This document shows positions 1-16,753 of a stretch of 64,000 bases of DNA, piece after piece. Source of the stretch: an uncultured Lentisphaerota bacterium (lineage in GTDB: Bacteria > Verrucomicrobiota > Kiritimatiellia > RFP12 > UBA1067); contig CAMKJU010000007.1 of the NCBI GenBank assembly GCA_946413265.1, positions 296 through 64,295 on the forward strand. Direction: 5' to 3'. A program made the position numbers and the translations under genes. Under the pieces are notes generated by a model. That model was given only the letters and a program-made list of their open reading frames with translations, ran no database searches and was not told where the DNA came from. Position 1 is the stretch's first letter, and the number at the start of each line of letters is the position of its first letter.

Positions 1-670
1 CTTTCACCCTGCACACAATAATGTAGAGATGACTGCGATTGCCCTTCAGCAGGTCGTCCGCAACATGCTGCGCGTCCTCTCCGTCGAGGACAGCGCGGAC
101 GAACACATCCCTGTCGCGGTCGCTAACGCCATATTCGCCGCAGACAAGGTCCACCATCTCCCGGACGGCCTGGCGGCGGATCTTCTCGCTCAGGCGCTCG
201 ATCGGCGATTGGGCGTCCTGGTTCCGGACCTCCTCCCTCGCCACCAGGTACTGGGTCTGACGCCGGATGTTACGCAGACGCTCCGCGCGGTGGCGCTCGC
301 CGAGCGTACGGTCGGCAAGCGTCGCCGAGTATGCGTCGCGCAGCTCCTTGTGCGTATTGCCGGCCCACGCCCACTTTGCCTCGCGCTCGTTCCTGTGGCT
401 CAGAAAAGAACGCGCGTGCATCTGGACAAACCCGACCCACTGGGCCTCCGTCTTAGGTTCAAGCTCCTCCTCAAGGCGATGGTCGGGGTCAAGCCCTGCA
501 ATCTTTATGACCGCACTCTGAACGGCGTCTTCGCAATCCTGCCTGTTACCCGACCGCCAAAGCGAGTTGACGATCTTGGGGCCGTGCTTCCGAAGGAGCG
601 TGCCCCATTCCCCGAGCGTGGGGATGTACGCGATGCTGTCGCTTGCTGCGTGTGTATGCTTGCTTGTCAT
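1..670 (-). CDS. sigma-70 family (ECF-like) sigma factor-like protein; 3' end runs off the window start
   Basis: Not in the ORF track because the window edge truncates it. My translation from the ATG at 668-670 is open to position 1. It reads MTSKHTHAASDSIAYIPTLGEWGTLLRKHGPKIVNSLWRSGNRQDCEDAVQSAVIKIAG (region-2-like) and ends VSDRDRDVFVRAVLDGEDAQHVADDLLKGNRSHLYIIVCRVK (region-4 HTH-like). Track ORF 29..748 (+) is its antisense shadow. Confidence 0.5.
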   Translation of the reverse strand, partial: MTSKHTHAASDSIAYIPTLGEWGTLLRKHGPKIVNSLWRSGNRQDCEDAVQSAVIKIAGLDPDHRLEEELEPKTEAQWVGFVQMHARSFLSHRNEREAKWAWAGNTHKELRDAYSATLADRTLGERHRAERLRNIRRQTQYLVAREEVRNQDAQSPIERLSEKIRRQAVREMVDLVCGEYGVSDRDRDVFVRAVLDGEDAQHVADDLLKGNRSHLYIIVCRVK

Positions 671-6561: not shown

Positions 6562-9500
6562 TCACTCTCCCACTGCGAAACTGTTGAACATCACCTGCGC
6601 CGACGGCGAGGACAGCGGGATGTCCCGCATTTCGCCACTCAGTAATTTCAAGATCGTCTCCTTGTTTGCACGGCGCGCGACCGATTCCATGTCCTTGCCT
6701 TCGTCCACTTTCTTCAACGCGCCGTTGAGGGATTTTGTCCCGCAATCAGCGAGAACGCGCCACAAGAGCTGGACATGCCGCGGATCCAGATCACGGTACG
6801 GAGTTATCGCGCCGTCCTCCCCGCACAGACATTTGTAGAATTCATCGTATGTTTTAGCCTTCTTACCGCTCAGGATGAGCGCGCGCACGAACTCGATGTC
6901 CACTTGGCTCTTCCCCGCATGGGCGCTCTTCATCGAAAGTTGCGTGCCGCGTTCGCCGATCGACTGCGCGGCGATCAATCCCGCCGGATACCCAACTTCT
7001 GGCAAAGTGCCGTCCGACAAAGCCCCGTAGCACGCCGCGCAGATGCCAGTTTCGCAACCACAGTTGAGTATCGAACGCTTGCCGCCATCCGGTGTCTTGC
7101 ACTTCTTGCACGTAATCGTCACTGGACGCAGGGCATAGACAAGACAACGCGTGAGATCGCCCGCCTTGCCGGTGTTGAGCTTCTTGTCGCACATCGAAGC
7201 GCGAGCGTTGAACGACGACCAGAAGATGTCCTCCCACGACATGCCGCCGACGAGCGAGCCCTGAATATCGAATTTCCGTTTCACCTCTTCGGACGGCACA
7301 AACCCCAGCTTGCCGGTCGCAAGTAGACCGCGAGGATTCGTGAACTGTTTGATCTGCTTTGCACCATTTGCCCCTGAGTTGACCATATCCGCCGCGAAAC
7401 CGTTTTTCCCGTCATACACCACAAGGTCGTAGTAACCGAACGAGACGCCCTCTTCCGTACATTTCGCGAACGCCGCACGCGCATCCTTCAAGACGGATTC
7501 GGCTTCGCCCTGTTTACAATGCTCTTCCAATCGCTTCTTCGCGGCACCGGAATCGCGCGCGCAGACGAGATATGCGCCCATCACGAAGTCTCGGTCGTAA
7601 TTCGGGGTGATCTGTCCGTTCCCCGCCGAAAAGAGATTCGCGGACGGCGCCAGACGCGGCAGCGCCTCCTGTGCAGCGTCGGAAAGCGGCAGGTAACCAG
7701 CCATCTCGTCGCCGTCAAAATCGGCCCCGAACCCCTTGCATGAAAGCGGCTGCAAACGGAATACCTCGCCGTCTGCGGGCTTCAGGACCTTTACCTTGAA
7801 GGTCTGCATGCTGTATTTGTGAAGAGACGGCTGACGGTTCATGAGCATCCAAAGCGGATGTTTTTCCAGGTACTCCTTCAGCGCATCCCATTTCTCTGTG
7901 AGCCGTTTTTTCGAGCTTTCCTTAGGCGAGCGCCAGCCGAACCCCGCTGCCGTCACACCATGCGCCGTCACACGCAGGTCCACGCTCTGTGGCTTCCCTT
8001 CGACCTTGATCCGCTCATCGGTGACGCGGTCCGCCAGAAGCTCCCAGAGGATGGACGCCGGAACGCCGACCTCGTCGAACGCGAGATCCGGCCCCGGCGT
8101 GATCACCATACGACACGAACGGTCCACGCGCCGCCCTAGTCCCTCCCGCCTCACGAGCCCGTGTTTCCCGCAGCACGCATCACGCAAAACCTGAAACACG
8201 GTCGCGACAGCCTTCTCGATCTGCGTCAACGCCTTCGCCTTGTCTTCTTCCTTCGCCTTGGCATACCGGTCGCACGCGGCGACAATCTCCCCGTACCCGA
8301 ACGGATCTACCTCGCCTTCGTATCCCACGCGGTACCTGATCGGCAGGACGGGGACGTAGCGCAACTTCGGCTGGTCGTGCAAGTTCTTGCCCGTCAATGC
8401 TTTCGCGGGATAGTCGATCGGCTCCGGCAATTCGATCACGCCCCACTTTTCTTCTTCAGCGCACACGAATGCCTCGTTAAGCGAACCGAACATCGCCGGA
8501 TCGCACACGCCTCCTTCGGCCATCTCGTTTTGCTCATTTGCAGCCTTGAGAAGGAACCGCTCGCCCGGCTTACTCGCACTACACAATTCGCACGGACACA
8601 GCACGAGCGCGTCTCCGATGCTTTCCGCCTGCTTGTCCGACGTCTTGAGGCACATCCTCCGAAGTACCTCGCCCGCATTCACCTTCCTTTTGATGAAACA
8701 ACGCACATCGCCCACGCCGTCAATGCCAAGTGCAGAAGTCTTCACCTCCAACGACAAAGTTGTGGCCGAGCCCCCTTTTGTTCCCCAAATCGGCAGTACC
8801 TCTAGGCAATCCTCCCGACTGGGACAACGGGCGTCTCGCCCGTTGCAGGCACCCGAAACGCGCATCCAATAATTGCCATTGCTTTCTTCCAGCGGTCCCT
8901 TGATCGTTACGCCAAAAAGTGACAGCAACGACGCAAGGCTCAGCGTATTCCGCTTGTCGCCCCCATTCCACGTAAAACGCATTCCACCGAACGCAAGCCG
9001 TGCGGAATCCTTCGGACAGCGGAACTGTGCCGAATGGACCGCCACCGCAGACGCCTTTCCGATTGTCCGACCCTTGCGATCCTGTTCCTCCTTGAGGCCA
9101 ATCCGTTTGAGCAGTTCGTTATCCGACATCCGCGAAAACGACACTGTCTTCTTTTTCGCGTTGACATCCATCCTGATCAGCATGGCCGCAAGATAGGCGG
9201 ACAGGACTTGGGAAAATCCAGTCTGGTCGAGTGCGGGCTTGCCCGTCCCCTTGACGGCGACGGCATCGGAGTTGCGAAGAAGGTCCGCGATGATCGGTTC
9301 CGATCCGGGATAGGCCGAAAGCGCCCACATTTCCATTTCGCCCACGCGCTGTCCGCCGCCAATGAGCCGCCCGTGCGCGGCCTGTCCCGTGGCGCAGGAA
9401 TACAATGCGTCCTTCCCGCCACGACGCGCCTGCGCTTTCAACGCGGGGATGTGGTGGAGGCGGAAGAAATGCTGGTACCCCACCACGACGGGCGATGCCG

Positions 9501-11523
9501 TTGTAACCTTGCGTCCGTCGGGCAGCGTCCAGTGCAGATATGCCTTGCCATATTCGTCGAGTCCCGTCTCTTTGAGCAGACGCTGGACCTTCTCGTGGTC
9601 GAGCGCGCCGCAACATGGCGCACCCGCCGGTCCGGACGCCCCGTCCTTCAGCACGTCCGCATCTGTCTTTCCGTTGTGGAACAACCATCCCAAATGAGTC
9701 TCCAGCAGCTGACCGGGGTTCATGCGCGAGAGGACGCCATGCGGGTTCAAGAGAATGTCAACCGTCACTGTCATGCCATCGGGAAGCTTCAGTTTCGGCA
9801 TTTCCTTCGCAGGCAACACCTTGGAGACGACGCCCTTGTTGCCGTGGCGTCCCATCAACTTGTCACCCGGCTCTAGGGCGAACGTGCGCGCAATGCGGTA
9901 CTCCAGGCGGCCTACGAATCCCGGATCGCGGTTGAGCGGCTTCTCCTTGATTTCAGGCGGGTATTCAATCTGCACGAGCTTCGCGGGGGCGGCGTCGAAA
10001 TACCGGATCGTATGGGTCTGTTCCTTGCCGTTCGCAATCTTCTTGAATTCCGCAATGGCCGTACCCTCACGCAGAGGTGCCCCCGCCGAGAGGATTTTGG
10101 TACACGTCCAGCCCGGATCAATGTCGAGCGCGTAGTCCTTCTCTTCAGTAACGGCCATTTCTTTCACGATTGCGTCGCTCACCACGACCGCGTCGTCGAG
10201 GTTCCAGCCATACCAGGGGATGTACGCGACAAGCAGGTCGCGACCGATCTTCAGCTCGCCGCCGTCCGAGCATGTCGGACACAACCCCGCGCGCTCCAGC
10301 GGGCGCATGAATTCAACAAGCCCCTCTTCGCCGCCAGACATCACGCGCGGCGCTTCCGCCCCGCTCACGGGCACGCCCTGGCGCATGTTCTTCGCGCCCA
10401 TCATGCTGCGCGCGTCGTCGTTGTGGTTCAGGAACGGAATCAGCGACGTGCACCAGCTCACAGGCGGCCGCGATGGTAGGGCCGCCTCGCCGAGGCGGCC
10501 GCTCTTCGCATTAATCTGTCCCTTCGCATCCACCCACGCCCCACGCGCGAGTTGTAGTTGGATGCCCACCATCTCGGACTCGGGGCTCTCGATCGGGCAG
10601 ATTCGTCCTTCAAACGAGGGATGGTTCTGCCGGAATTCGGCGGGCAGGAACCCAACGTGGCTTCGGCTCATCTTGAAGCGCTTGATGCCGCAGATGCGTC
10701 CAGCCGCCTCAAGAATGTTGTCCGGACGGATGACGTCAAACCCGTTGAATCGCCGTTCACCGATCGACGAAATAGGCACAAGCTCCGCAGCCAAATCACT
10801 CCAGCTATCTCGCGTTCCATTCTTCAAGACAAAGAAACGATAGTAGAGTCGAAGAAGGCGATTGCGCAGCCAAACCGGAAACGTCACCGCCATGCGGTGG
10901 TCCAAGTCATCGGCATCAAATGTTTCTATCTTGTCCTGATTCGCCTGCGCCCATTCCTTCAGATCCAAGTTCAGATCTTGCAGCGATGTGGCAAGGCCGC
11001 CCCGGCCTTGCAGCAAGGGCGAGGGCGCCCTTGCCACACCGGGCTTTCCAACCACCTCATTTGCCCACCAATGGGCGAAGGCTATTTCGTACCGGTCAGA
11101 CTTTGAGAGCTTTTCGTCACCGATGCGGATGAAGCGTCCGTCCGGCAACCCCAGACGAAGCTCCAGCTCCTTGCCATTGGGCACGCGCACCTTGCGCAGA
11201 CCCGGCATCTCGCCGAGCCAGGAGCTCCAGACAAGACGCTGGGGCGCGTCCTTGTTTTCGGCGCCGGCGCCGCGCGTCACGAATATGCCATGGTACGGGA
11301 GGGGAATGTCAAACTCTTGCGTGTCGCCGTCCGTAAAGGATATGCAGAACCGCCCCGTGAGGTCCAAGTTCTTCGCATACGCGAATTTCGCATCTTCAGC
11401 AGCGGGGAGGATGAGACTGACCTCATCCACCTCCGACGACACATTCCTGACGCATTCCGTAGCAGAGTTATTCCACGATTCAAGCGTCTCCGCATCGTCG
11501 TCTTTGAACATCAGCCAATTCAT
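6562..11523 (-). CDS. single-chain fused beta-beta' multisubunit-type RNA polymerase (compact, 1653 aa)
   Basis: Beta motifs: GRICPIESPESEMVG, SLIPFLNHNDDARSMMGAKNMRQGVP, GDKLMGRHGNKGVVSK, VDILLNPHGVLSRMNPGQLLETHLG, GGGQRVGEMEMWAL. These are followed by beta' motifs: GRRVDRSCRMVITPGP, NRQPSLHKYSMQ, catalytic GADFDGDEMA (nt 7699-7728), and AAQSIGERGTQLSMKSAH. ATG at 11523; the track uses a TTG at 11529. Confidence 0.9.
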   Translation of the reverse strand: MNWLMFKDDDAETLESWNNSATECVRNVSSEVDEVSLILPAAEDAKFAYAKNLDLTGRFCISFTDGDTQEFDIPLPYHGIFVTRGAGAENKDAPQRLVWSSWLGEMPGLRKVRVPNGKELELRLGLPDGRFIRIGDEKLSKSDRYEIAFAHWWANEVVGKPGVARAPSPLLQGRGGLATSLQDLNLDLKEWAQANQDKIETFDADDLDHRMAVTFPVWLRNRLLRLYYRFFVLKNGTRDSWSDLAAELVPISSIGERRFNGFDVIRPDNILEAAGRICGIKRFKMSRSHVGFLPAEFRQNHPSFEGRICPIESPESEMVGIQLQLARGAWVDAKGQINAKSGRLGEAALPSRPPVSWCTSLIPFLNHNDDARSMMGAKNMRQGVPVSGAEAPRVMSGGEEGLVEFMRPLERAGLCPTCSDGGELKIGRDLLVAYIPWYGWNLDDAVVVSDAIVKEMAVTEEKDYALDIDPGWTCTKILSAGAPLREGTAIAEFKKIANGKEQTHTIRYFDAAPAKLVQIEYPPEIKEKPLNRDPGFVGRLEYRIARTFALEPGDKLMGRHGNKGVVSKVLPAKEMPKLKLPDGMTVTVDILLNPHGVLSRMNPGQLLETHLGWLFHNGKTDADVLKDGASGPAGAPCCGALDHEKVQRLLKETGLDEYGKAYLHWTLPDGRKVTTASPVVVGYQHFFRLHHIPALKAQARRGGKDALYSCATGQAAHGRLIGGGQRVGEMEMWALSAYPGSEPIIADLLRNSDAVAVKGTGKPALDQTGFSQVLSAYLAAMLIRMDVNAKKKTVSFSRMSDNELLKRIGLKEEQDRKGRTIGKASAVAVHSAQFRCPKDSARLAFGGMRFTWNGGDKRNTLSLASLLSLFGVTIKGPLEESNGNYWMRVSGACNGRDARCPSREDCLEVLPIWGTKGGSATTLSLEVKTSALGIDGVGDVRCFIKRKVNAGEVLRRMCLKTSDKQAESIGDALVLCPCELCSASKPGERFLLKAANEQNEMAEGGVCDPAMFGSLNEAFVCAEEEKWGVIELPEPIDYPAKALTGKNLHDQPKLRYVPVLPIRYRVGYEGEVDPFGYGEIVAACDRYAKAKEEDKAKALTQIEKAVATVFQVLRDACCGKHGLVRREGLGRRVDRSCRMVITPGPDLAFDEVGVPASILWELLADRVTDERIKVEGKPQSVDLRVTAHGVTAAGFGWRSPKESSKKRLTEKWDALKEYLEKHPLWMLMNRQPSLHKYSMQTFKVKVLKPADGEVFRLQPLSCKGFGADFDGDEMAGYLPLSDAAQEALPRLAPSANLFSAGNGQITPNYDRDFVMGAYLVCARDSGAAKKRLEEHCKQGEAESVLKDARAAFAKCTEEGVSFGYYDLVVYDGKNGFAADMVNSGANGAKQIKQFTNPRGLLATGKLGFVPSEEVKRKFDIQGSLVGGMSWEDIFWSSFNARASMCDKKLNTGKAGDLTRCLVYALRPVTITCKKCKTPDGGKRSILNCGCETGICAACYGALSDGTLPEVGYPAGLIAAQSIGERGTQLSMKSAHAGKSQVDIEFVRALILSGKKAKTYDEFYKCLCGEDGAITPYRDLDPRHVQLLWRVLADCGTKSLNGALKKVDEGKDMESVARRANKETILKLLSGEMRDIPLSSPSAQVMFNSFAVGE

Positions 11524-11525
11524 GA

Positions 11526-12776
11526 TCAAATCCGTGTCAGCAGTTGGAGCGAACCTACTATTGCACCGAGAACGAAGCCCAGCACCTGGACGGCACAGAG
11601 ATTTTCGGACATGAACTCGTCAAGCGTCTGGTGAAATGTCGCGATGGACATGCCGTCAACAGCTTCCGTGACGCGCTGTTCAAGCCGGAGCTTGTCAAGA
11701 ATCGCCTGCTTGTTCTCGCCGATGAGCTGGGCGACCTTCACGCCGACCTTTGGCAGCACTCCCTTCTCAAGCTTTTCGCGCAGCATGTCAGAGGCGAATG
11801 CACGGTCGATGAGCACGGGAACATTCTCGCGGAGATACGTAGCAATGTAACGCTTGCCGCGCACCCTCATCTCACGGATAATTCCGCCCATCACCTTCTG
11901 TCCCTCTTCGCCTTTCATCCACAGAGTGAGCTGGTCCGCGTATGCGAGAAGCTTCTCCCTCAACATCGTCTGAGTTGCCTCGCGCACCAGCCATCCGTCC
12001 AGCTTGGCCTTCATGCTCTCATAATCGGCAAAGTTTTCCATGACATAGTCCGTAATCGCATTCGCGCCTATGCCAAACGGGATCTTCTCGTTCAGTTTCT
12101 GCCGTAGGAAGGTGCGCAATTCACCGCGCACCTCCTCGATGATTCCGCCCGCGTTTTCACGAAGTGCCTCAACCAGCTTTTCAACTATGAACCGCCGGGA
12201 TCCCTCGCTTTTGATTCGCGGCAGGATTCCCTCGTTCCATATCTTCGACCAGGTATCATCCGTTGCCAGACTGTCAATGACGGCAAGGACCTGACGTTCC
12301 ACGTACGGCGACACGAACTCGACGATCTCGGCTTCATGCTCAACAAGATACCGTTGAATCCAGTCGCGGAGCTGAGTCATCCGCCGCGTGTCGTTCACAA
12401 ACGCCAGCACCTCACCCTTCATCTCCTCGACGAGCGCATCAGGATTCAGAAGTTTCTTCCCGACCATGTTGCCGAGCGAGACGGCCATTTCGCGTTTCTG
12501 CCTCGGGATAATCCCCTGGATGCGTCCGCCAAGATGTGGCTCGTACGGTCTGAACAGATACCAAAGCGCCAGCCAGTTCGTAATGTATCCGACGGCTCCC
12601 GCAAGCAATATCGGCATAAACCAGCCAAGATACCGGTCAATACCCGCCGCCGTCTCCACAGAAATCAGCAGCCGCGCCACCACATATACGACCTCCAGGC
12701 CCAGCACTATCCAGCTGAACCGGTTAAAAAACCTATCCCATGTTTTCCACGCATCCATTTTACTTTTCGTCTTCAT
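11526..12776 (-). CDS. DUF445/UPF0754-family membrane protein
   Basis: GAVGYITNWLALWYLFRPYEPHLGGRIQGIIPRQKREMAVSLGNMV matches the YheB/UPF0754 signature as I recall it. There are N- and C-terminal TM segments. The stop TGA lies 2 nt before the RNAP ATG. The start was chosen at MKTKSK with an AGAGGAAG RBS. Confidence 0.65.
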   Translation of the reverse strand: MKTKSKMDAWKTWDRFFNRFSWIVLGLEVVYVVARLLISVETAAGIDRYLGWFMPILLAGAVGYITNWLALWYLFRPYEPHLGGRIQGIIPRQKREMAVSLGNMVGKKLLNPDALVEEMKGEVLAFVNDTRRMTQLRDWIQRYLVEHEAEIVEFVSPYVERQVLAVIDSLATDDTWSKIWNEGILPRIKSEGSRRFIVEKLVEALRENAGGIIEEVRGELRTFLRQKLNEKIPFGIGANAITDYVMENFADYESMKAKLDGWLVREATQTMLREKLLAYADQLTLWMKGEEGQKVMGGIIREMRVRGKRYIATYLRENVPVLIDRAFASDMLREKLEKGVLPKVGVKVAQLIGENKQAILDKLRLEQRVTEAVDGMSIATFHQTLDEFMSENLCAVQVLGFVLGAIVGSLQLLTRI

Positions 12777-12817
12777 GTTCTTCCTCTTGTGCCACCTTGC
12801 CAAAGCGCAACGCCGAC

Positions 12818-12826
12818 AGTATAGCA
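12818..12826 (-). promoter_or_regulatory. extended -10 promoter candidate (TGCTATACT) for the DUF445-RNAP operon
   Basis: Minus strand TTTTGCTATACT, about 35 nt upstream of the ATG at 12776. The same motif precedes aroE and the DJ-1 gene. Confidence 0.4.
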
Positions 12827-12868
12827 AAAATCGGCTGGCTCATGGGGAGTTTTTCGGCCCGGAAATCT

Positions 12869-13048
12869 TTATGTCCATCCTAGGATTTCCGACAAAGTCG
12901 TAATGCCATAACGCGACTTCAGTTGCGTCCGTACCTTTTCCAGTGCCTTCTTCTCAATCTGCCGCACCCGCTCGCGGGATATACCCAACAATTCAGCGGT
13001 TTCACTCAACGTGTGCGTCACACCATATCCAGTCTTGCTTTCACCCAT
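12869..13048 (-). CDS. stand-alone sigma-70 region-4 (HTH) miniprotein, 59 aa
   Basis: Not in the track (59 aa). AGGAAG RBS before the ATG at 13048. Translation: MGESKTGYGVTHTLSETAELLGISRERVRQIEKKALEKVRTQLKSRYGITTLSEILGWT. The core LSETAELLGISRERVRQIEKKALEKVR is a near-consensus sigma-70 region 4.2. Confidence 0.6.
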   Translation of the reverse strand: MGESKTGYGVTHTLSETAELLGISRERVRQIEKKALEKVRTQLKSRYGITTLSEILGWT

Positions 13049-13200
13049 TTCTTAACTTCCTTTCTCGGACAATTTTCACAACCCTCAAAAACAATAAACG
13101 CTACAGATGCGACAAACTCGCATCTGCACAAAAAAAACACGGAAGATTTATCCGCGCACCATAGCAGAATTCTGGCTGGGGCGAACCGAGTGCGCCTCAC

Positions 13201-13260
13201 GGTAGGGCGCGATCACCGAGCGCGCCGGAATTGCGGGCCGCCCGGTGGTCGGCCCCTACC
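13201..13260. repeat. REP-like GC-rich palindromic element pair
   Basis: GGTAGGGCGCGATCACCGAGCGCGCCG gaatt GCGGGCCGCCCGGTGGTCGGCCCCTACC. Both arm types recur at 26753-26816, and a related arm at 27978-28006. Confidence 0.75.
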
Positions 13261-13284
13261 GGTGCATAAGCGCCATGCTGGATA

Positions 13285-13938
13285 TCACAGCATGCGCAAA
13301 AACGCTTCGCGGCTTGACATCGCCTCTTCCAATTTTCCGGTCCTGCAGAGCGAGACGTAAAACGCCGCAGCAGCAGCCTGGCAGTTGATCTGTCTGTTCG
13401 GATTGAACTCGATGTCAGTGAATGCGTCGAATTCCCTCAGCTCCTCGGCCAGCTTCGGATTGGCGAGCAGCGCCTTGATGTAGAGATGATAGAAGAATGC
13501 CGTCTTCGGCTCGAGATCCCACCGGACTCCATCAAGTTCGAAGGCGAGAAGGCGATGTCCGGCGGACGCTTCCTGGACATGGTGGCCATGGTGGCGGACT
13601 TCACGCGAATCGTGGGAGTAGAGTTCCGGGAACGGGCCAACCCCGCCGTCGAACACCTTGCTCGCCTGAAACACCGACTCCACGGAGCACTCGACTCCGC
13701 CGTGCGGAAACTTCAGGTTGAAGGCGCTCAAACTCACGCCGAGCGGCTGCAGCGACTTGCTTGAAATCTCAAGCACCTTCGCCGACGGATCGATCCTGTG
13801 GATGGCGTCGTGCAGGGCAACGACGTTTTTCTGCTTCTGCGAAAAAGCGAATCCAGGATGCCAAGTGAACTCAGGAGACTCCACGGTCCTGTATCCGACA
13901 TATCTCTCCAACGGTCTGTAACAAGGTCTTTTCGCCAT
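13285..13938 (-). CDS. conserved-looking hypothetical protein (217 aa), function unknown
   Basis: AAGGAA RBS before the ATG at 13938. Non-repetitive sequence with motifs FTWHPGFAFSQKQKNVVALH, SVESVFQASKVF and FTDIEFNPNRQINCQAAAA. I cannot assign a family. Confidence 0.6.
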   Translation of the reverse strand: MAKRPCYRPLERYVGYRTVESPEFTWHPGFAFSQKQKNVVALHDAIHRIDPSAKVLEISSKSLQPLGVSLSAFNLKFPHGGVECSVESVFQASKVFDGGVGPFPELYSHDSREVRHHGHHVQEASAGHRLLAFELDGVRWDLEPKTAFFYHLYIKALLANPKLAEELREFDAFTDIEFNPNRQINCQAAAAAFYVSLCRTGKLEEAMSSREAFLRML

Positions 13939-13992
13939 ACTGTTTTCCTTTCTTTTGTTGTTTGTTCTTGTTGCCTCTGTCAATATTAAACA

Positions 13993-14459
13993 TCAAGGTG
14001 TCGTATTTCTTTCACAGGCGTTGAACATCTGCCAGAGGTTGTTCGCGAGCTGCATGAGCAGGTAGAAGTTCCTGCTGCACCGCCAGTGGTTGCAGAACAC
14101 GTGCTCAAGCCCGTAGTCGTTGTTCTTCTCGACGTCGAAGCTCGACTCAACGTTCCACCTGCGCCGCCCCCATTCCACGACCTCCGACGCCACCTCCGGG
14201 CAGCCGACGTCGTAGTTCGTGGCGAACATCCCGCGGCATGTCCCCCCTTCGTCTCCTCGCAGGCGACGACGTTGAACTCCTCGCCTTCGGACTGGGTCGT
14301 GAACTTCACTCCGCCCGTCCACGCCACGACGCCGGTCTCGGTCTTCCGCTGGTTCTCGCCCCTCGCGACGAGAGGCCCGCAGCAGCCCTTCGAGACCTCC
14401 ATCGAGTCGCACGCCATCTCGTACGCGTCCGGGGAGCGTCCCTCCTTCGGGGAAGTCAA
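13993..14459 (-). pseudogene. IS4/IS701-type DDE transposase remnant (C-terminal fragment, frameshifted)
   Basis: ...EVVEWGRRRWNVESSFDVEKNNDYGLEHVFCNHWRCSRNFYLLMQLANNLWQMF is a typical DDE_Tnp C-terminus. The upstream part continues in another frame (track ORFs 13993..14412 and 13986..14459). No N-terminal half and no inverted repeats were seen. Confidence 0.6.
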
Positions 14460-14481
14460 GGGGAAATGTGAAATAAGTCAG

Positions 14482-14519
14482 AAAAAAATATCGGGCGGCC
14501 CCCGCAGGATGGCCGCCCG
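14482..14519 (-). terminator. rho-independent terminator-like hairpin
   Basis: CGGGCGGCC-n10-GGCCGCCCG followed on the minus strand by TATTTTTTTC. No convincing minus-strand gene lies upstream of it, so its role is unclear. Confidence 0.3.
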
Positions 14520-14885
14520 AACCGCTCCAGGAACCGTCGCGCCAGCAAAACTTCAGCGCGAAAATCTAATCATTTGGAATCCTTGGGGAGTCGGAATGGT
14601 GTGTCATGTCAGAAATCACCTGCTTTTACGTGGGGCACATCTCCTCAACGCCGAGCCTTCTGATGATTGGAAACAACTATTTGAAACAACTTGCCTTTGG
14701 CGCGCGGGCTAACTCGCCCGCGCCCATTTGCCGATCCTCAAACTACCACAATTCTGAATGTTCAAGGTGCGCCCGCAGGATAATGTTGTTCTTGAAAGTT
14801 GTCATGGTTGCTTCCAAATACGTATGGGTAAAAACGCATGCGCCCTTTTGCGTGGGATATCGTGCTTGATGCAATTAATGGATTA

Positions 14886-14894
14886 TGGTACAAT
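14886..14894 (+). promoter_or_regulatory. extended -10 promoter candidate (TGGTACAAT)
   Basis: About 30 nt upstream of the ECF sigma gene ATG at 14924. Confidence 0.35.
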
Positions 14895-14923
14895 CTTGGC
14901 GCAATGCGAAAAAACAATAAAAA

Positions 14924-15355
14924 ATGCCAAGGGTCTCGACTCTTCATGCATCTGACATGTTGATGGATGACGACAGCAAGATTCTGGAAGAGCTACGGGA
15001 ACGCCCCGGCACGGGGGCGAAACTGCTCGTCGATGCATACGGACGCCGCCTTTACGCAGCGGCGATGCGTCTATGCCGCAACGAGTCCGATGCGGAGGAT
15101 CTCGTCGCGCGCACGCTCGCGCGCGCAATCCAAAGCATCGGTTCGTTCAAGGGCGAATCGGCGTTCTTCACCTGGTTGTGCTCGATCCTGGCAAACTTCT
15201 TCAAAATGGACCTGCGCAGGAAAGGCGCCAATTCCCTTGGGTTTCCCGACGAGCTGCCGGAGGTGGCTGACGAAAGGCCCTCTCCGGAAAAGAACGTATC
15301 GCGAAGGGCGGCTACGAAGTTCTTGGCGAAGGCGTGTACGGCGGATGGTATTTGA
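14924..15355 (+). CDS. ECF-type sigma factor, region 2 only (no recognisable region 4)
   Basis: DAEDLVARTLARAIQSIGSFKGESAFFTWLCSILANFFKMDLRRK is an ECF sigma-2 signature. The ORF stops at 143 aa without a region-4 HTH in any frame. Confidence 0.6.
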   Translation: MPRVSTLHASDMLMDDDSKILEELRERPGTGAKLLVDAYGRRLYAAAMRLCRNESDAEDLVARTLARAIQSIGSFKGESAFFTWLCSILANFFKMDLRRKGANSLGFPDELPEVADERPSPEKNVSRRAATKFLAKACTADGI

Positions 15356-15406
15356 CACAGGCAGAAACAATTTCAAGTCAATCAGTCAAAGAAAAGTGAG
15401 GCAGTC

Positions 15407-16753
15407 ATGAAGAAAATGCTCAAGATCGTCAAGTGGACCGCAATTACGGTCGTCGCAGCCTTTGTCGTGGCGGCGGCATACGTCGGATTGAATTCCTTTG
15501 ACTGCGAACCGCCGGACATATCGAGGTTCGTCAACCCGATGGAGGTGCCGACCGACGCGGACAACGTGTACTGCGCCTTGGACTCCGCGGCAAACGTGGT
15601 CAGCGAAAAAACCGGCAAGCTCGTACTTGATGGCATATTCGAGAACTACAAGGAGGCTTTTGAGAGGTTTTGTCAGCATAAGATCAACAAATCCAATAAG
15701 GGCATGACGACGGAGGAAAGGGATTTGATTCTTTCCGAGGCAACAAAGCCGCTTGCTCTATTCCACGAGGCGGCGCAGCGCAAGACATGGTATGCCTTTG
15801 ACCATGCTACCGGGAAGCGTCTGTTTTTCCCCGCCATCACCAGACTCTTTCAACTGTGCAGGCTTGCAGAGCTTGAGGCCATGCGCCATCTGGAGCGCGG
15901 AGAGACGAAGGCGGCGACAGGCGTTGTCCGCGACATGCTTTTGCTTGCGCGCAAGATGGAGAACGACTCGGAGTCCGCCGTCAGGTGGCTGGTGGCGAAT
16001 GGCTGTCTTTTGCGGTATGCAGACAACATTGCCATGAAGCTCGTGCAATCGGGCAAGGCGACCGACGAGGACCTTGTCCGCCTTCAGGACGCCCTGCGAC
16101 AGTTCGAGCTGCCAAACAGGCACGAACGTGCGCAGAGGATGCTGAACAACGATTTTACGGTGTGCTTCGGGCAGATGATGGAACAGGTTGACACTTCGGA
16201 GATCTCGACTTTCCTGAAGAACAGAGACAACTCGACCGCACTGGATGCATGGGTGGCGCGGATTGTACCGCTGATCAGGCCCTACGCCTTTCATCGCAAT
16301 CGCTCATGGACGACATACGCCAACCTACTTGACAAAATGAAGGAACGTTTCCGTCTCGGCTATGACAAGGCGGAGTGGGAAAAACTTGAAGAAGAGGCGC
16401 GCGTTGCGTGCGGCGCTACAACCGGCTGGCGCTTTGGCCCGAACTTTGTCGGCAAGAAGATGATAGAGGTGACTATGCCGGAGTGGCAAGGCATTGCCAT
16501 TTCCATCGCGAAAAGCAGCTTCCAGCACACAGCCGCGGAAACGGCCATTGCGGCGGCTCGGTTCAAGCGTAAGACCGGCGCATATCCTAAAACTCTGGCG
16601 GAACTTGTGCCTGAGTTCCTGCCGGCCGTGCCGGAAGACCCCTTCGCGTACGGCAAGGAACTAAAGTACGACGCGACGCGCGGCGTCATCTGGACGACCG
16701 ACAAGGACTCCAAGAAGAACCGCAACTACGAGTTCAACATCAACGGCCGCTGA
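15407..16753 (+). CDS. membrane-anchored hypothetical protein (possible ECF-associated partner)
   Basis: GAGG RBS and an N-terminal TM helix (IVKWTAITVVAAFVVAAAYVGL). It directly follows the ECF gene. No family recognised. Confidence 0.6.
   Translation: MKKMLKIVKWTAITVVAAFVVAAAYVGLNSFDCEPPDISRFVNPMEVPTDADNVYCALDSAANVVSEKTGKLVLDGIFENYKEAFERFCQHKINKSNKGMTTEERDLILSEATKPLALFHEAAQRKTWYAFDHATGKRLFFPAITRLFQLCRLAELEAMRHLERGETKAATGVVRDMLLLARKMENDSESAVRWLVANGCLLRYADNIAMKLVQSGKATDEDLVRLQDALRQFELPNRHERAQRMLNNDFTVCFGQMMEQVDTSEISTFLKNRDNSTALDAWVARIVPLIRPYAFHRNRSWTTYANLLDKMKERFRLGYDKAEWEKLEEEARVACGATTGWRFGPNFVGKKMIEVTMPEWQGIAISIAKSSFQHTAAETAIAAARFKRKTGAYPKTLAELVPEFLPAVPEDPFAYGKELKYDATRGVIWTTDKDSKKNRNYEFNINGR

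Follow-up and report, generated by a model that had tools for sequence, protein, structure and literature searches.

The window analyzed here, a 64,000-nucleotide stretch of DNA from an uncultured Lentisphaerota bacterium, encodes a 59-amino-acid protein that we refer to as the miniprotein. Its gene lies just upstream of an operon (the DUF445-RNAP operon) encoding a fused beta-beta' RNA polymerase (RNAP). The open reading frame (ORF) specifies a helix-turn-helix (HTH) of the sigma-70 region 4.2 type, an observation that is real and far beyond chance, and the miniprotein is very probably a free, intact, and expressed sigma-4-type module. Neither the RNAP operon nor the island around it includes the miniprotein as a constant member. 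Judging from sequence, we give about half of our confidence to one reading, in which the miniprotein is a small HTH protein that acts autonomously to regulate its own cassette and the adjacent accessory or defense operon. We found no description in the literature of a sigma-4.2-only family or of the AAA+-ClpP/RNAP locus described below, and the gene family is apparently undescribed.

The miniprotein resembles sigma region 4.2 without helix 4.1

The gene and its translation signal are as follows.

12869..13048, minus strand: miniprotein gene, 59 amino acids, predicted sigma-70 region 4.2 HTH plus C-terminal tail, without region 4.1 (translation, Pfam, PDB profile, AF2, dN/dS)
13056..13061, minus strand: Shine-Dalgarno sequence AGGAAG, 7 nucleotides 5' of the ATG (sequence)

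An earlier note on this DNA had reported a small ORF here with an AGGAAG ribosome-binding site and a product resembling the region 4.2 HTH. We confirmed both parts. The ORF is on the minus strand with a translation identical to the earlier reading, and the Pfam profile Sigma70_r4 (PF04545) matched it with 47.6 bits (E 1.2e-12), above the gathering cutoff of 24.1. The match was confined to positions 19 to 49 of the 50 in the profile, with the region 4.1 helix (positions 1 to 18) uncovered. The miniprotein therefore does not have a complete Sigma70_r4 domain, because helix 4.1 is absent. Alignment to SigA left just approximately 9 nonconserved residues before the GYG turn. The NCBIfam models RpoH, RpoD, RpoS, SigC, and others matched through their last ~35 residues, and a profile of the family matched PDB chains of SigA/RpoD over their C-terminal ~50 residues (lowest E value 2.6e-16). 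A KORA match in Pfam was weak (E 0.0016, 19 bits versus a cutoff of 26.7). With only 59 amino acids, the miniprotein has no region 2 in the same polypeptide and is not a sigma-70 factor. By sequence comparison, it is the region 4.2 HTH and C-terminal tail of a primary-type sigma factor, minus helix 4.1.

An AF2 model of the miniprotein (pLDDT 71) had helices at residues 14 to 21, 25 to 47, and 52 to 56. When this 59-residue model was used as a Foldseek query, the neighbors were sigma-4 domains, but none was significant with so short a query. The recognition-helix residues RERVRQ are invariant across the main miniprotein family. We take these to be the -35-contacting residues of sigma-70 (R584, E585, R588, and Q589) in structures of sigma-4 with -35 DNA. 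One sub-branch of the family carries RQRVQQ or RQRVMM instead, as expected for a DNA-reading helix that is changing its target.

The earlier note had also stated that sigma regions 1 to 3 are missing upstream, and this held up. What lies upstream is a NADAR-DarT1-type gene, and tblastn of window positions 12000 to 16000 with the host RpoD and three island sigma-70 proteins found no remnants of those regions. The sole match was region 4.2 of the miniprotein itself, and all others had E values above 1. Furthermore, a stop codon a few codons 5' of the ATG closes the frame, and the sister copies have 66-amino-acid stop-to-stop frames.

The miniprotein belongs to a conserved gene family

A length-restricted search found 44 homologues of 47 to 83 amino acids with 47 to 96% identity, every one of which carries PF04545. 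More 50%-identity clusters, of 55- to 70-amino-acid proteins, came from an exhaustive profile search, and the extended-family signature common to the clusters is GYGVTHTLEETA..LGITRERVRQIEK.ALEK.R..L...YG(I/A)T. The window protein fits throughout the signature of the family, GYGVTHTL.ETA..LG(I/V)(S/T)RERVRQIE...L.K.R......YG(I/A)T, in 55 to 70 amino acids. An ATG with a Shine-Dalgarno sequence is present in every copy examined, including AGGA or GGAG before the ATG in 7/7 divergent copies, and length, start, and Shine-Dalgarno sequence are kept across copies that are 55 to 96% identical. The ratio of nonsynonymous (dN) to synonymous (dS) divergence was 0.06 to 0.2 among close copies, at a dS of 0.2 to 0.5. 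For distant copies dS was saturated, whereas dN was only 0.22 to 0.54.

The earlier note had offered two alternatives, a free sigma-4 module or the relic of a sigma gene, and had taken the ribosome-binding site and intact frame to favor expression. The first alternative stands, because the family is conserved and the module is intact and very probably expressed. The second does not. A pseudogene or relic is ruled out by the dN/dS of 0.06 to 0.2, the intact frames, the Shine-Dalgarno sequences, and the lack of upstream remnants.

Seven of the 33 GTDB representatives from the window's genus have a family member, and the 28 from outside it have none. The source names of the relatives are Kiritimatiellae and rumen and gut metagenomes. 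In this analysis, the family was found only in one genus of rumen and gut Kiritimatiellae and in related metagenome bins. The genome that the window comes from has three copies: the one in the window, a second at C7:76699-76869 (copy B), and a truncated one at C101:9037-9147 (C7 and C101 are contigs of this genome).

In a tree, the family formed a separate clade on a long branch from region 4 of the host and island sigma-70 proteins. The miniprotein is 50 to 59% identical to the C termini of host RpoD and the island sigma-70 proteins over 32 residues. Its identity to region 4.2 of the host's own RpoD is approximately 50% over 32 residues, and its profile score is nearer to Firmicute SigA. The identity of 50 to 59% and the separate clade rule out a recent copy of the C terminus of host RpoD or of an island sigma-70.

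Two further observations concern relatives of this fold. In the exhaustive search, three larger proteins, P0078 (703 amino acids), P0094 (647 amino acids), and P0081 (176 amino acids), each gave two to six separate matches to the miniprotein profile and are predicted to contain tandem sigma-4.2-like HTH repeats. Weak matches to MzaA, a defense-associated sigma, came from both PADLOC and NCBIfam.

The miniprotein is not a fixed component of the RNAP operon

The miniprotein stop codon is 93 nucleotides before the first ATG (12776) of the DUF445-RNAP operon, at the following junction.

12758..12776, minus strand: junction with the RNAP operon; relatives start DUF445 at an ATG at 12758 (homology with genomes G022 and G020 begins exactly there)

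The earlier note had suggested, among other readings, that the miniprotein might work with the minimal RNAP, and that its conservation next to homologous RNAPs should be checked. We found those homologues by searching with the enzyme's unique linker, because a whole-RNAP query returned almost only housekeeping polymerases. The loci L095, L096/97, L098/99, and L100/101 conserve the RNAP, a ~254-amino-acid protein, and RtcR, usually also a ~361-amino-acid protein and a helicase, and sometimes a full sigma-70. Gene calls and a six-frame search with hidden Markov models found no miniprotein within 7 kb of the RNAP in L095 to L101, and there was none within ~7 kb in genomes G022, G020, G034, and G006. 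Altogether, 8 of the 11 RNAP loci examined have no miniprotein, and the window, G021, and G002 are the only cases in which it is close to island genes. The RNAP was found in seven of 61 related genomes and the miniprotein also in seven, with an overlap of just three genomes. Four RNAP-bearing genomes (G020, G024, G034, and G006) have no miniprotein anywhere.

The nearest relative, G022, has an RNAP linker that is 97% identical and the same operon without an adjoining miniprotein. Its homology to the window ends at 12758, which is the DUF445 ATG in both G022 and G020, and the segment with the NADAR gene and the miniprotein (window 12808-14016) is on a different contig in G022. Thus, conservation beside homologous RNAPs was not seen: the miniprotein is absent from most of the loci, and synteny breaks off at the DUF445 ATG. 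The four RNAP-bearing genomes that have no miniprotein likewise leave a specific partnership with the minimal RNAP unsupported.

The suggestion that the miniprotein binds a flap tip is weakened twice: the miniprotein has no helix 4.1, and the fused RNAP has no flap segment. In host RpoB, 237 amino acids separate the GWNLDD and GDKLMGRHGNKG blocks and include the canonical flap tip SPEEKLLRAIFAEKA. In the fused RNAP (window 6562-11529, residues ~440 to 560), only 73 unaligned amino acids separate the two blocks, and no flap-tip motif like SPEEKLLRAIFAEKA was found. From this comparison, the beta-flap, which is the docking site of sigma region 4, appears to have been deleted from the fused RNAP.

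Several related RNAP islands contain a full-length sigma-70-family gene (443 to 490 amino acids, with regions 2, 3, and 4), at L096:14342-15769, L100:15615-16946, L112:601-2073, L128:9974-11302, and L130:4819-6108. It is between the helicase and RtcR genes in four islands and upstream of the gene for p378 in G021 (L112), and it is missing in the window, G022, G020, and L095. The window also encodes, at 14924-15355 on the plus strand, a 143-amino-acid product of the extracytoplasmic function (ECF) type with Sigma70_r2 only (E 5e-14) and no region 4. It is followed by a 448-amino-acid ORF (15407-16753) with no Pfam hit. We considered a split sigma factor formed by the miniprotein and this region-2-only protein but rejected it, because the pairing is not conserved at other miniprotein loci. 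Where genes had been called at those loci, none had a Sigma70_r2 gene beside the miniprotein except for the full sigma-70 in G021.

Divergent family members accompany an AAA+-ClpP operon

Divergent members of the family are found beside a different set of genes. In L119 to L122, the order is miniprotein, a 66-amino-acid protein, a 725-amino-acid tandem AAA+ ATPase, ClpP, p113, a PARG-like protein, and a metallophosphatase. In L123 to L125, p208 is followed by the miniprotein and the AAA+ ATPase, and in L133 to L135 genes for a PARG-like protein, SRA, and p211 precede the miniprotein, p73, and AAA+. Genome G025 has miniprotein, p128, ClpP, and AAA+; L010 has ClpP, p76, AAA+, miniprotein, and a shortened p378/helicase; and G018 has AAA+ followed by miniprotein. 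The gaps from the miniprotein to the next gene are 26 to 48 nucleotides, which indicates cotranscription. This adjacency is a property of divergent members only. The window copy lacks it, being ~13 kb (the whole RNAP island) away from its own p96-AAA-ClpP genes (C101:10651-13891).

The AAA+ ATPases of this operon are 62 to 71% identical to one another and match the PADLOC IetA model (E 3e-43). The small proteins p66, p73, p76, and p128 have a common core and a terminal MSAEEFFG motif. More generally, 66- to 128-amino-acid proteins encoded directly 5' of the AAA+ gene combine a basic helical core (DLFAEIKVKMVMRIYGV..) with an MSAEEFFG motif at either terminus or at both, with examples at L127:9261-9551, L128:6719-7030, L113:3968-4354, L119:6199-6399, and C101:13682-13891 of the host genome. 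Their sequences suggest degron-flanked proteins that serve AAA+-ClpP as substrates, adaptors, or anti-sigma-like partners. The miniprotein shares a G(V/I)(S/T)R.R motif with p66 and p128, but homology between them was ruled out by an hhalign probability of 2%.

The p208/p211 gene 5' of the miniprotein had no Pfam hit. An AF2 model of p211 (pLDDT 79) gave Foldseek hits that were almost all ECF sigma factors (best E 0.046), and the best hit in a PDB profile search was a sigma factor in which regions 2 and 4 matched collinearly (E 1.2). Therefore, the p208/p211-type protein is, as modeled, a probable and very divergent ECF-like sigma factor. This ECF-like family of ~210 to 250 amino acids accompanies both the AAA+-ClpP operon and the module formed by the NADAR gene and the miniprotein (window 2-670 on the minus strand, L133:1778-2413, L123:5335-5961, and L001:217-954).

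A perfect sigma-54 promoter, TGGCACGGTTGTTGCA (12/12), is 55 nucleotides 5' of the miniprotein in L133, and 11/12 matches follow the miniprotein in L010 and the ATPase in L123. The chance expectation in the 355 kb scanned is ~1 match of at least 11/12 and 0.04 at 12/12. The host genome has a canonical rpoN.

The AAA+-ClpP operon adjoins the RNAP/RtcR island

In G022, G034, G020, and G006, genes for p210/p250, p128, AAA+, and ClpP are immediately beyond RtcR, divergent from it and codirectional with the RNAP operon. One uninterrupted segment of G022 covers both C101:10637-13970 and C7:62-1201 at 90 to 94%, in that order, which places the end of contig C101 at the start of C7 and thus of the window. 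The host genome therefore has RtcR (955-2889) divergent from p250 (window 2-670, minus strand), p96 with its MSAEEFFG motif, the 725-amino-acid AAA+ ATPase, and ClpP. A sigma-54-like element, TGGTACAGTTATTGCT, is before its p96 gene at C101:13955-13970.

Thus, the RNAP island and the AAA+-ClpP operon make up one larger accessory locus, which explains why family members are occasionally beside RNAP-island genes. In G021, the order is miniprotein, sigma-70, p378, and helicase, and in G002, which has a divergent RNAP island, the miniprotein is ~2.7 kb beyond RtcR. A loose, recurrent link thus survives through the AAA+-ClpP operon, with which the family is associated and which, in this genus, is next to the RNAP island. 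The seemingly orphan RtcR gains a plausible target in the divergent AAA+-ClpP operon with its sigma-54-like promoter. Furthermore, this previously unrecognized neighbor of the RNAP island, with ECF-like sigma, MSAEEFFG, AAA+, and ClpP genes, widens the system that needs explanation.

The window copy is part of a dispersed cassette

The features around the window copy are listed here.

12808..12868, minus strand: conserved tail 3' of the miniprotein stop codon; contains an extended -10-like sequence, TGCTATACT, at 12818-12826 (homology)
13049..13165, minus strand: leader that travels with the gene in close copies (alignment, divergence)
13102..13128, minus strand: perfect 9-bp inverted repeat CAGATGCGA-N5-TCGCATCTG, a terminator-like hairpin within the leader (sequence)
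13137..13157, minus strand: hairpin plus T run, a terminator-like site for the upstream NADAR gene (sequence)
13166..13262, minus strand: GC-rich repeat resembling repetitive extragenic palindromic (REP) elements, at the variable upstream edge of the repeated unit (BLAST)
13285..13983, minus strand: NADAR-DarT1-type (DarT1-associated antitoxin) gene (Pfam PF22397, E 6e-71)

In a tree, which is weak with such short proteins, the window copy is in a tight young clade nested among AAA-linked members. The unit shared by the close clade extends from about -110/-190 to just beyond the stop codon. The last 100 nucleotides of the leader diverge by 3 to 4%, versus 12 to 23% at codon position 3, in most pairs. 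The leader is therefore 3 to 6 times more conserved than third codon positions, except in pairs with L001, and is under constraint. The full leader is found in the host genome only at the two full-length miniprotein copies, and an Rfam search of 12600-13400 matched nothing.

Hairpins of unrelated sequence are at a similar distance from the ATG (-74 to -83) in L010, L112, and L114. The inverted repeat in the leader is thus more likely a terminator or RNA hairpin than an operator of the miniprotein. We rejected this palindrome as an operator because other copies have an unrelated hairpin or none, although the recognition helix is unchanged. A sigma-54-type promoter in the window leader was also rejected. 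Its GG-N10-GC element is intact only in L001 (TGGTACGTTTATTGCT), and both dinucleotides are broken in the window and four other copies. A scan of 12600-13400 for consensus sigma-70 promoters found none. The REP-like element had 64 BLAST hits, spread over many contigs of the host genome, and its copy number varies between orthologous loci.

Homology of the tail with L008a and L001 extends to ~12808, ~60 nucleotides beyond the stop codon, where other genes follow; in the window, the DUF445-RNAP operon starts just after it. Within the tail is a ~46-nucleotide element (…CCCCATGAGCCAGCCGATTTTTGCTATACTGTCGG…) that contains TGCTATACT and occurs at window 12816-12861, C101:10554-10592, L001:4712-4759, and L008 after 5467. 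It is directly 5' of unrelated genes, for DUF445, a 423-amino-acid ORF (the second tail copy in the host genome, on C101), an 85-amino-acid ORF, and DUF6939. This element may be a portable promoter. A sigma-54-like element, TGGAATGCCGCTTGCA (10/12, with GG and GC intact), is at L002:8191-8206 and in the tail of copy B on C7, 17 nucleotides past the stop codon and before CTP-transferase and SASA genes. It could be due to chance.

Members of the window clade are found after NADAR-DarT1 and followed by DUF6939 or small ORFs (L001 and L008), before a CTP-transferase/SASA pair (copy B and L002 to L007), or after a GP88-like gene. The spacer from the NADAR gene to the miniprotein is 236 nucleotides in the window, and this module recurs with different downstream genes in three other genomes (L001, L008/L009, and contig C39 of G022). 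In relatives, the NADAR gene is preceded by a RapZ-C-like (PapZ_C) gene and a 313-amino-acid gene, both of which are missing in the window. Homology between the window and these relatives stops at 14016, just 5' of NADAR and beside a 157-amino-acid ORF with no Pfam hit.

A scrambled remnant of the module is at C101:9037-9272. There, a 119-bp NADAR fragment (equivalent to window 13710-13828, NADAR codons ~53 to 95) is fused at a GAAGTT microhomology to positions -11 to +103 of the miniprotein gene, with 99% identity to the copy in the window. When C101 and C7 are joined, a ~20-kb RNAP/AAA+ locus is bracketed by the module and this fragment. The bracketing repeats suggest insertion or duplication by recombination.

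Function of the miniprotein

The reading we favor, an autonomous regulator, would run as follows. The original home of the family appears to be the head or edge of an accessory, defense-like operon encoding an MSAEEFFG protein, the ~725-amino-acid tandem AAA+ ATPase, and often ClpP, which an ECF-sigma-like gene often precedes and a sigma-54 promoter sometimes drives. The window copy belongs to a young sublineage that spread into variable regions as a cassette of ~300 to 380 bp, made up of the conserved leader and the ORF. A rearrangement then set the module of NADAR gene and miniprotein against the DUF445-RNAP operon. In the protein, the -35-reading helix of primary sigma factors (RERVRQIE) is retained whole and the flap-docking 4.1 helix is lost. 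Because of this combination, the miniprotein would most likely act alone on DNA, as a repressor or insulator at -35-like hexamers or at another operator. Its targets would then be its own cassette and the neighboring operon, and it would not be a subunit of the polymerase. Isolated sigma-4 fragments bind -35 DNA. This, the invariance of RERVRQ, and the switch in one sub-branch favor an autonomous DNA-binding regulator.

Several results weigh against this. No DNA operator was found, and the leader palindrome is not conserved across the family. TTG-type or -35-like motifs in the leader were not enriched (p 0.12), it has no 6/6 TTGACA-like site, and a search for shared upstream k-mers found the Shine-Dalgarno sequence alone. 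With two helices and a short third in the AF2 model (pLDDT 71), the protein may be unstable without a partner or dimerization. The C101 copy is truncated after codon 37, and the NADAR-adjacent copy on C39 of G022 has lost the first HTH helix in frame. With two close copies decaying, individual cassette copies may be dispensable. Finally, recurrent colocation with sigma-like genes and a polymerase leaves room for a protein-protein role.

That role is the next most probable explanation, although we think it rather unlikely. The partner would be the ECF-like p210/p250, the MSAEEFFG protein, or the AAA+ ATPase, and the miniprotein would be a co-sigma, an anti-sigma antagonist, or a substrate or adaptor. 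It would account for a miniprotein gene that is tightly operonic with p66 and AAA+ and that directly follows p208/p211 in L123 to L125 and L133 to L135, where p211 folds like a two-domain ECF sigma, and for a two-helix model that may need a partner. However, most AAA-ClpP operons of the genus have no miniprotein (it is in 7 of the 61 genomes, versus 20 with the ATPase), and G034 has p210, p128, and AAA in order without it. Its position relative to these partners varies (before, after, or away), close copies are in unrelated contexts, and homology to p66/p128 was not detectable. A more elaborate version, a proteolysis-gated switch, seems to us still less likely. Here an ECF-like sigma (p210/p250) would be held by a degron-flanked MSAEEFFG anti-sigma, an AAA+-ClpP pair controlled by RtcR and sigma-54 would gate it, and the miniprotein would give or block -35 reading in trans. 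If true, this switch would be coupled to the adjoining flap-less fused RNAP and its sigma-54-like partner.

We are similarly doubtful that the miniprotein supplies sigma-4 in trans to the fused beta-beta' RNAP, whether by reading the -35 element or by acting as a flap-tip binder or appropriator. It adjoins the RNAP operon in the window, and three more arrangements (G021, L010, and G002) place it beside island genes. Even so, the phyletic pattern largely refutes the idea, given the 8 of 11 RNAP loci and the four whole genomes without a miniprotein, the nearest relative's operon that lacks it, and members that accompany the AAA operon at loci with no RNAP. The short segment in place of the flap and the missing helix 4.1 also count against it. 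Equally doubtful is a decoy of host sigma region 4 in a defense island. Phage appropriators of the AsiA or gp67 type are proteins that hijack sigma-4, and a decoy could titrate or sense such hijackers, perhaps passing them to AAA+-ClpP. The surroundings are defense-like (NADAR-DarT1, toxin-antitoxin genes, McrBC, SRA, PARG-like, and Dcm/Mrr-helicase), the ATPase matches the IetA model, and the miniprotein reproduces the sigma-4.2 surface. However, it would be a poor mimic at approximately 50% identity to region 4.2 of host RpoD, and it has no helix 4.1, part of the surface used by known sigma-4 binders. The least probable explanation, and a very improbable one, is a nonfunctional sigma remnant or chance ORF. 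This would suit a protein made of just the last ~50 residues of a primary sigma and a family with two truncated sister copies, but not strong purifying selection, a conserved leader, retained length, start, and Shine-Dalgarno sequence, and the lack of upstream sigma remnants.

Comparison with known systems

The compact RNAP system is best described without the miniprotein among its components. The miniprotein shares with region 4.2 of RpoD/SigA, RpoH, and RpoS an HTH whose recognition helix is RERVRQIE, and its C-terminal tail is about as long. Unlike sigma-70 factors, it has no regions 1 to 3 and no helix 4.1, stands alone behind a ribosome-binding site and leader of its own, carries a C-terminal motif specific to the family, RYGIT(S/T)L..IL, and forms a separate long-branch clade. 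SigO-RsoA of Bacillus subtilis is a precedent for a sigma function that is split with an adjacently encoded partner of ~80 amino acids, and the miniprotein directly follows an ECF-sigma-like gene in L123 to L125 and L133 to L135. However, RsoA is region-2-like whereas the miniprotein is region-4.2-like, and p210 seems to have a region-4-like domain of its own. Also, the region-2-only ECF gene of the window (14924-15355) does not travel with the miniprotein elsewhere. Plasmid repressors of the KorA/TrfB type are similar as small HTH regulators of mobile-element operons, with weak KORA similarity, but the KORA score was below its cutoff and the sigma-4.2 match is far stronger.

In function, the nearest counterparts would be GerE and other minimal HTH proteins that stand alone and belong to the same superfamily. 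GerE and the minimal LuxR/FixJ-type proteins are very small free-standing members of the sigma-4/LuxR superfamily and act directly as regulators. GerE is a four-helix, 74-amino-acid dimer with a LuxR-type signature, whereas the miniprotein gave no GerE or LuxR match in Pfam and is predicted to have two to three helices. To our knowledge, no established class of regulators consists of free-standing sigma region 4.2 proteins under purifying selection. If our reading is correct, a 59-amino-acid protein with the -35-reading helix and without the polymerase-docking helix would be a minimal case, in which a piece of the core transcription machinery has been reused as an independent factor.

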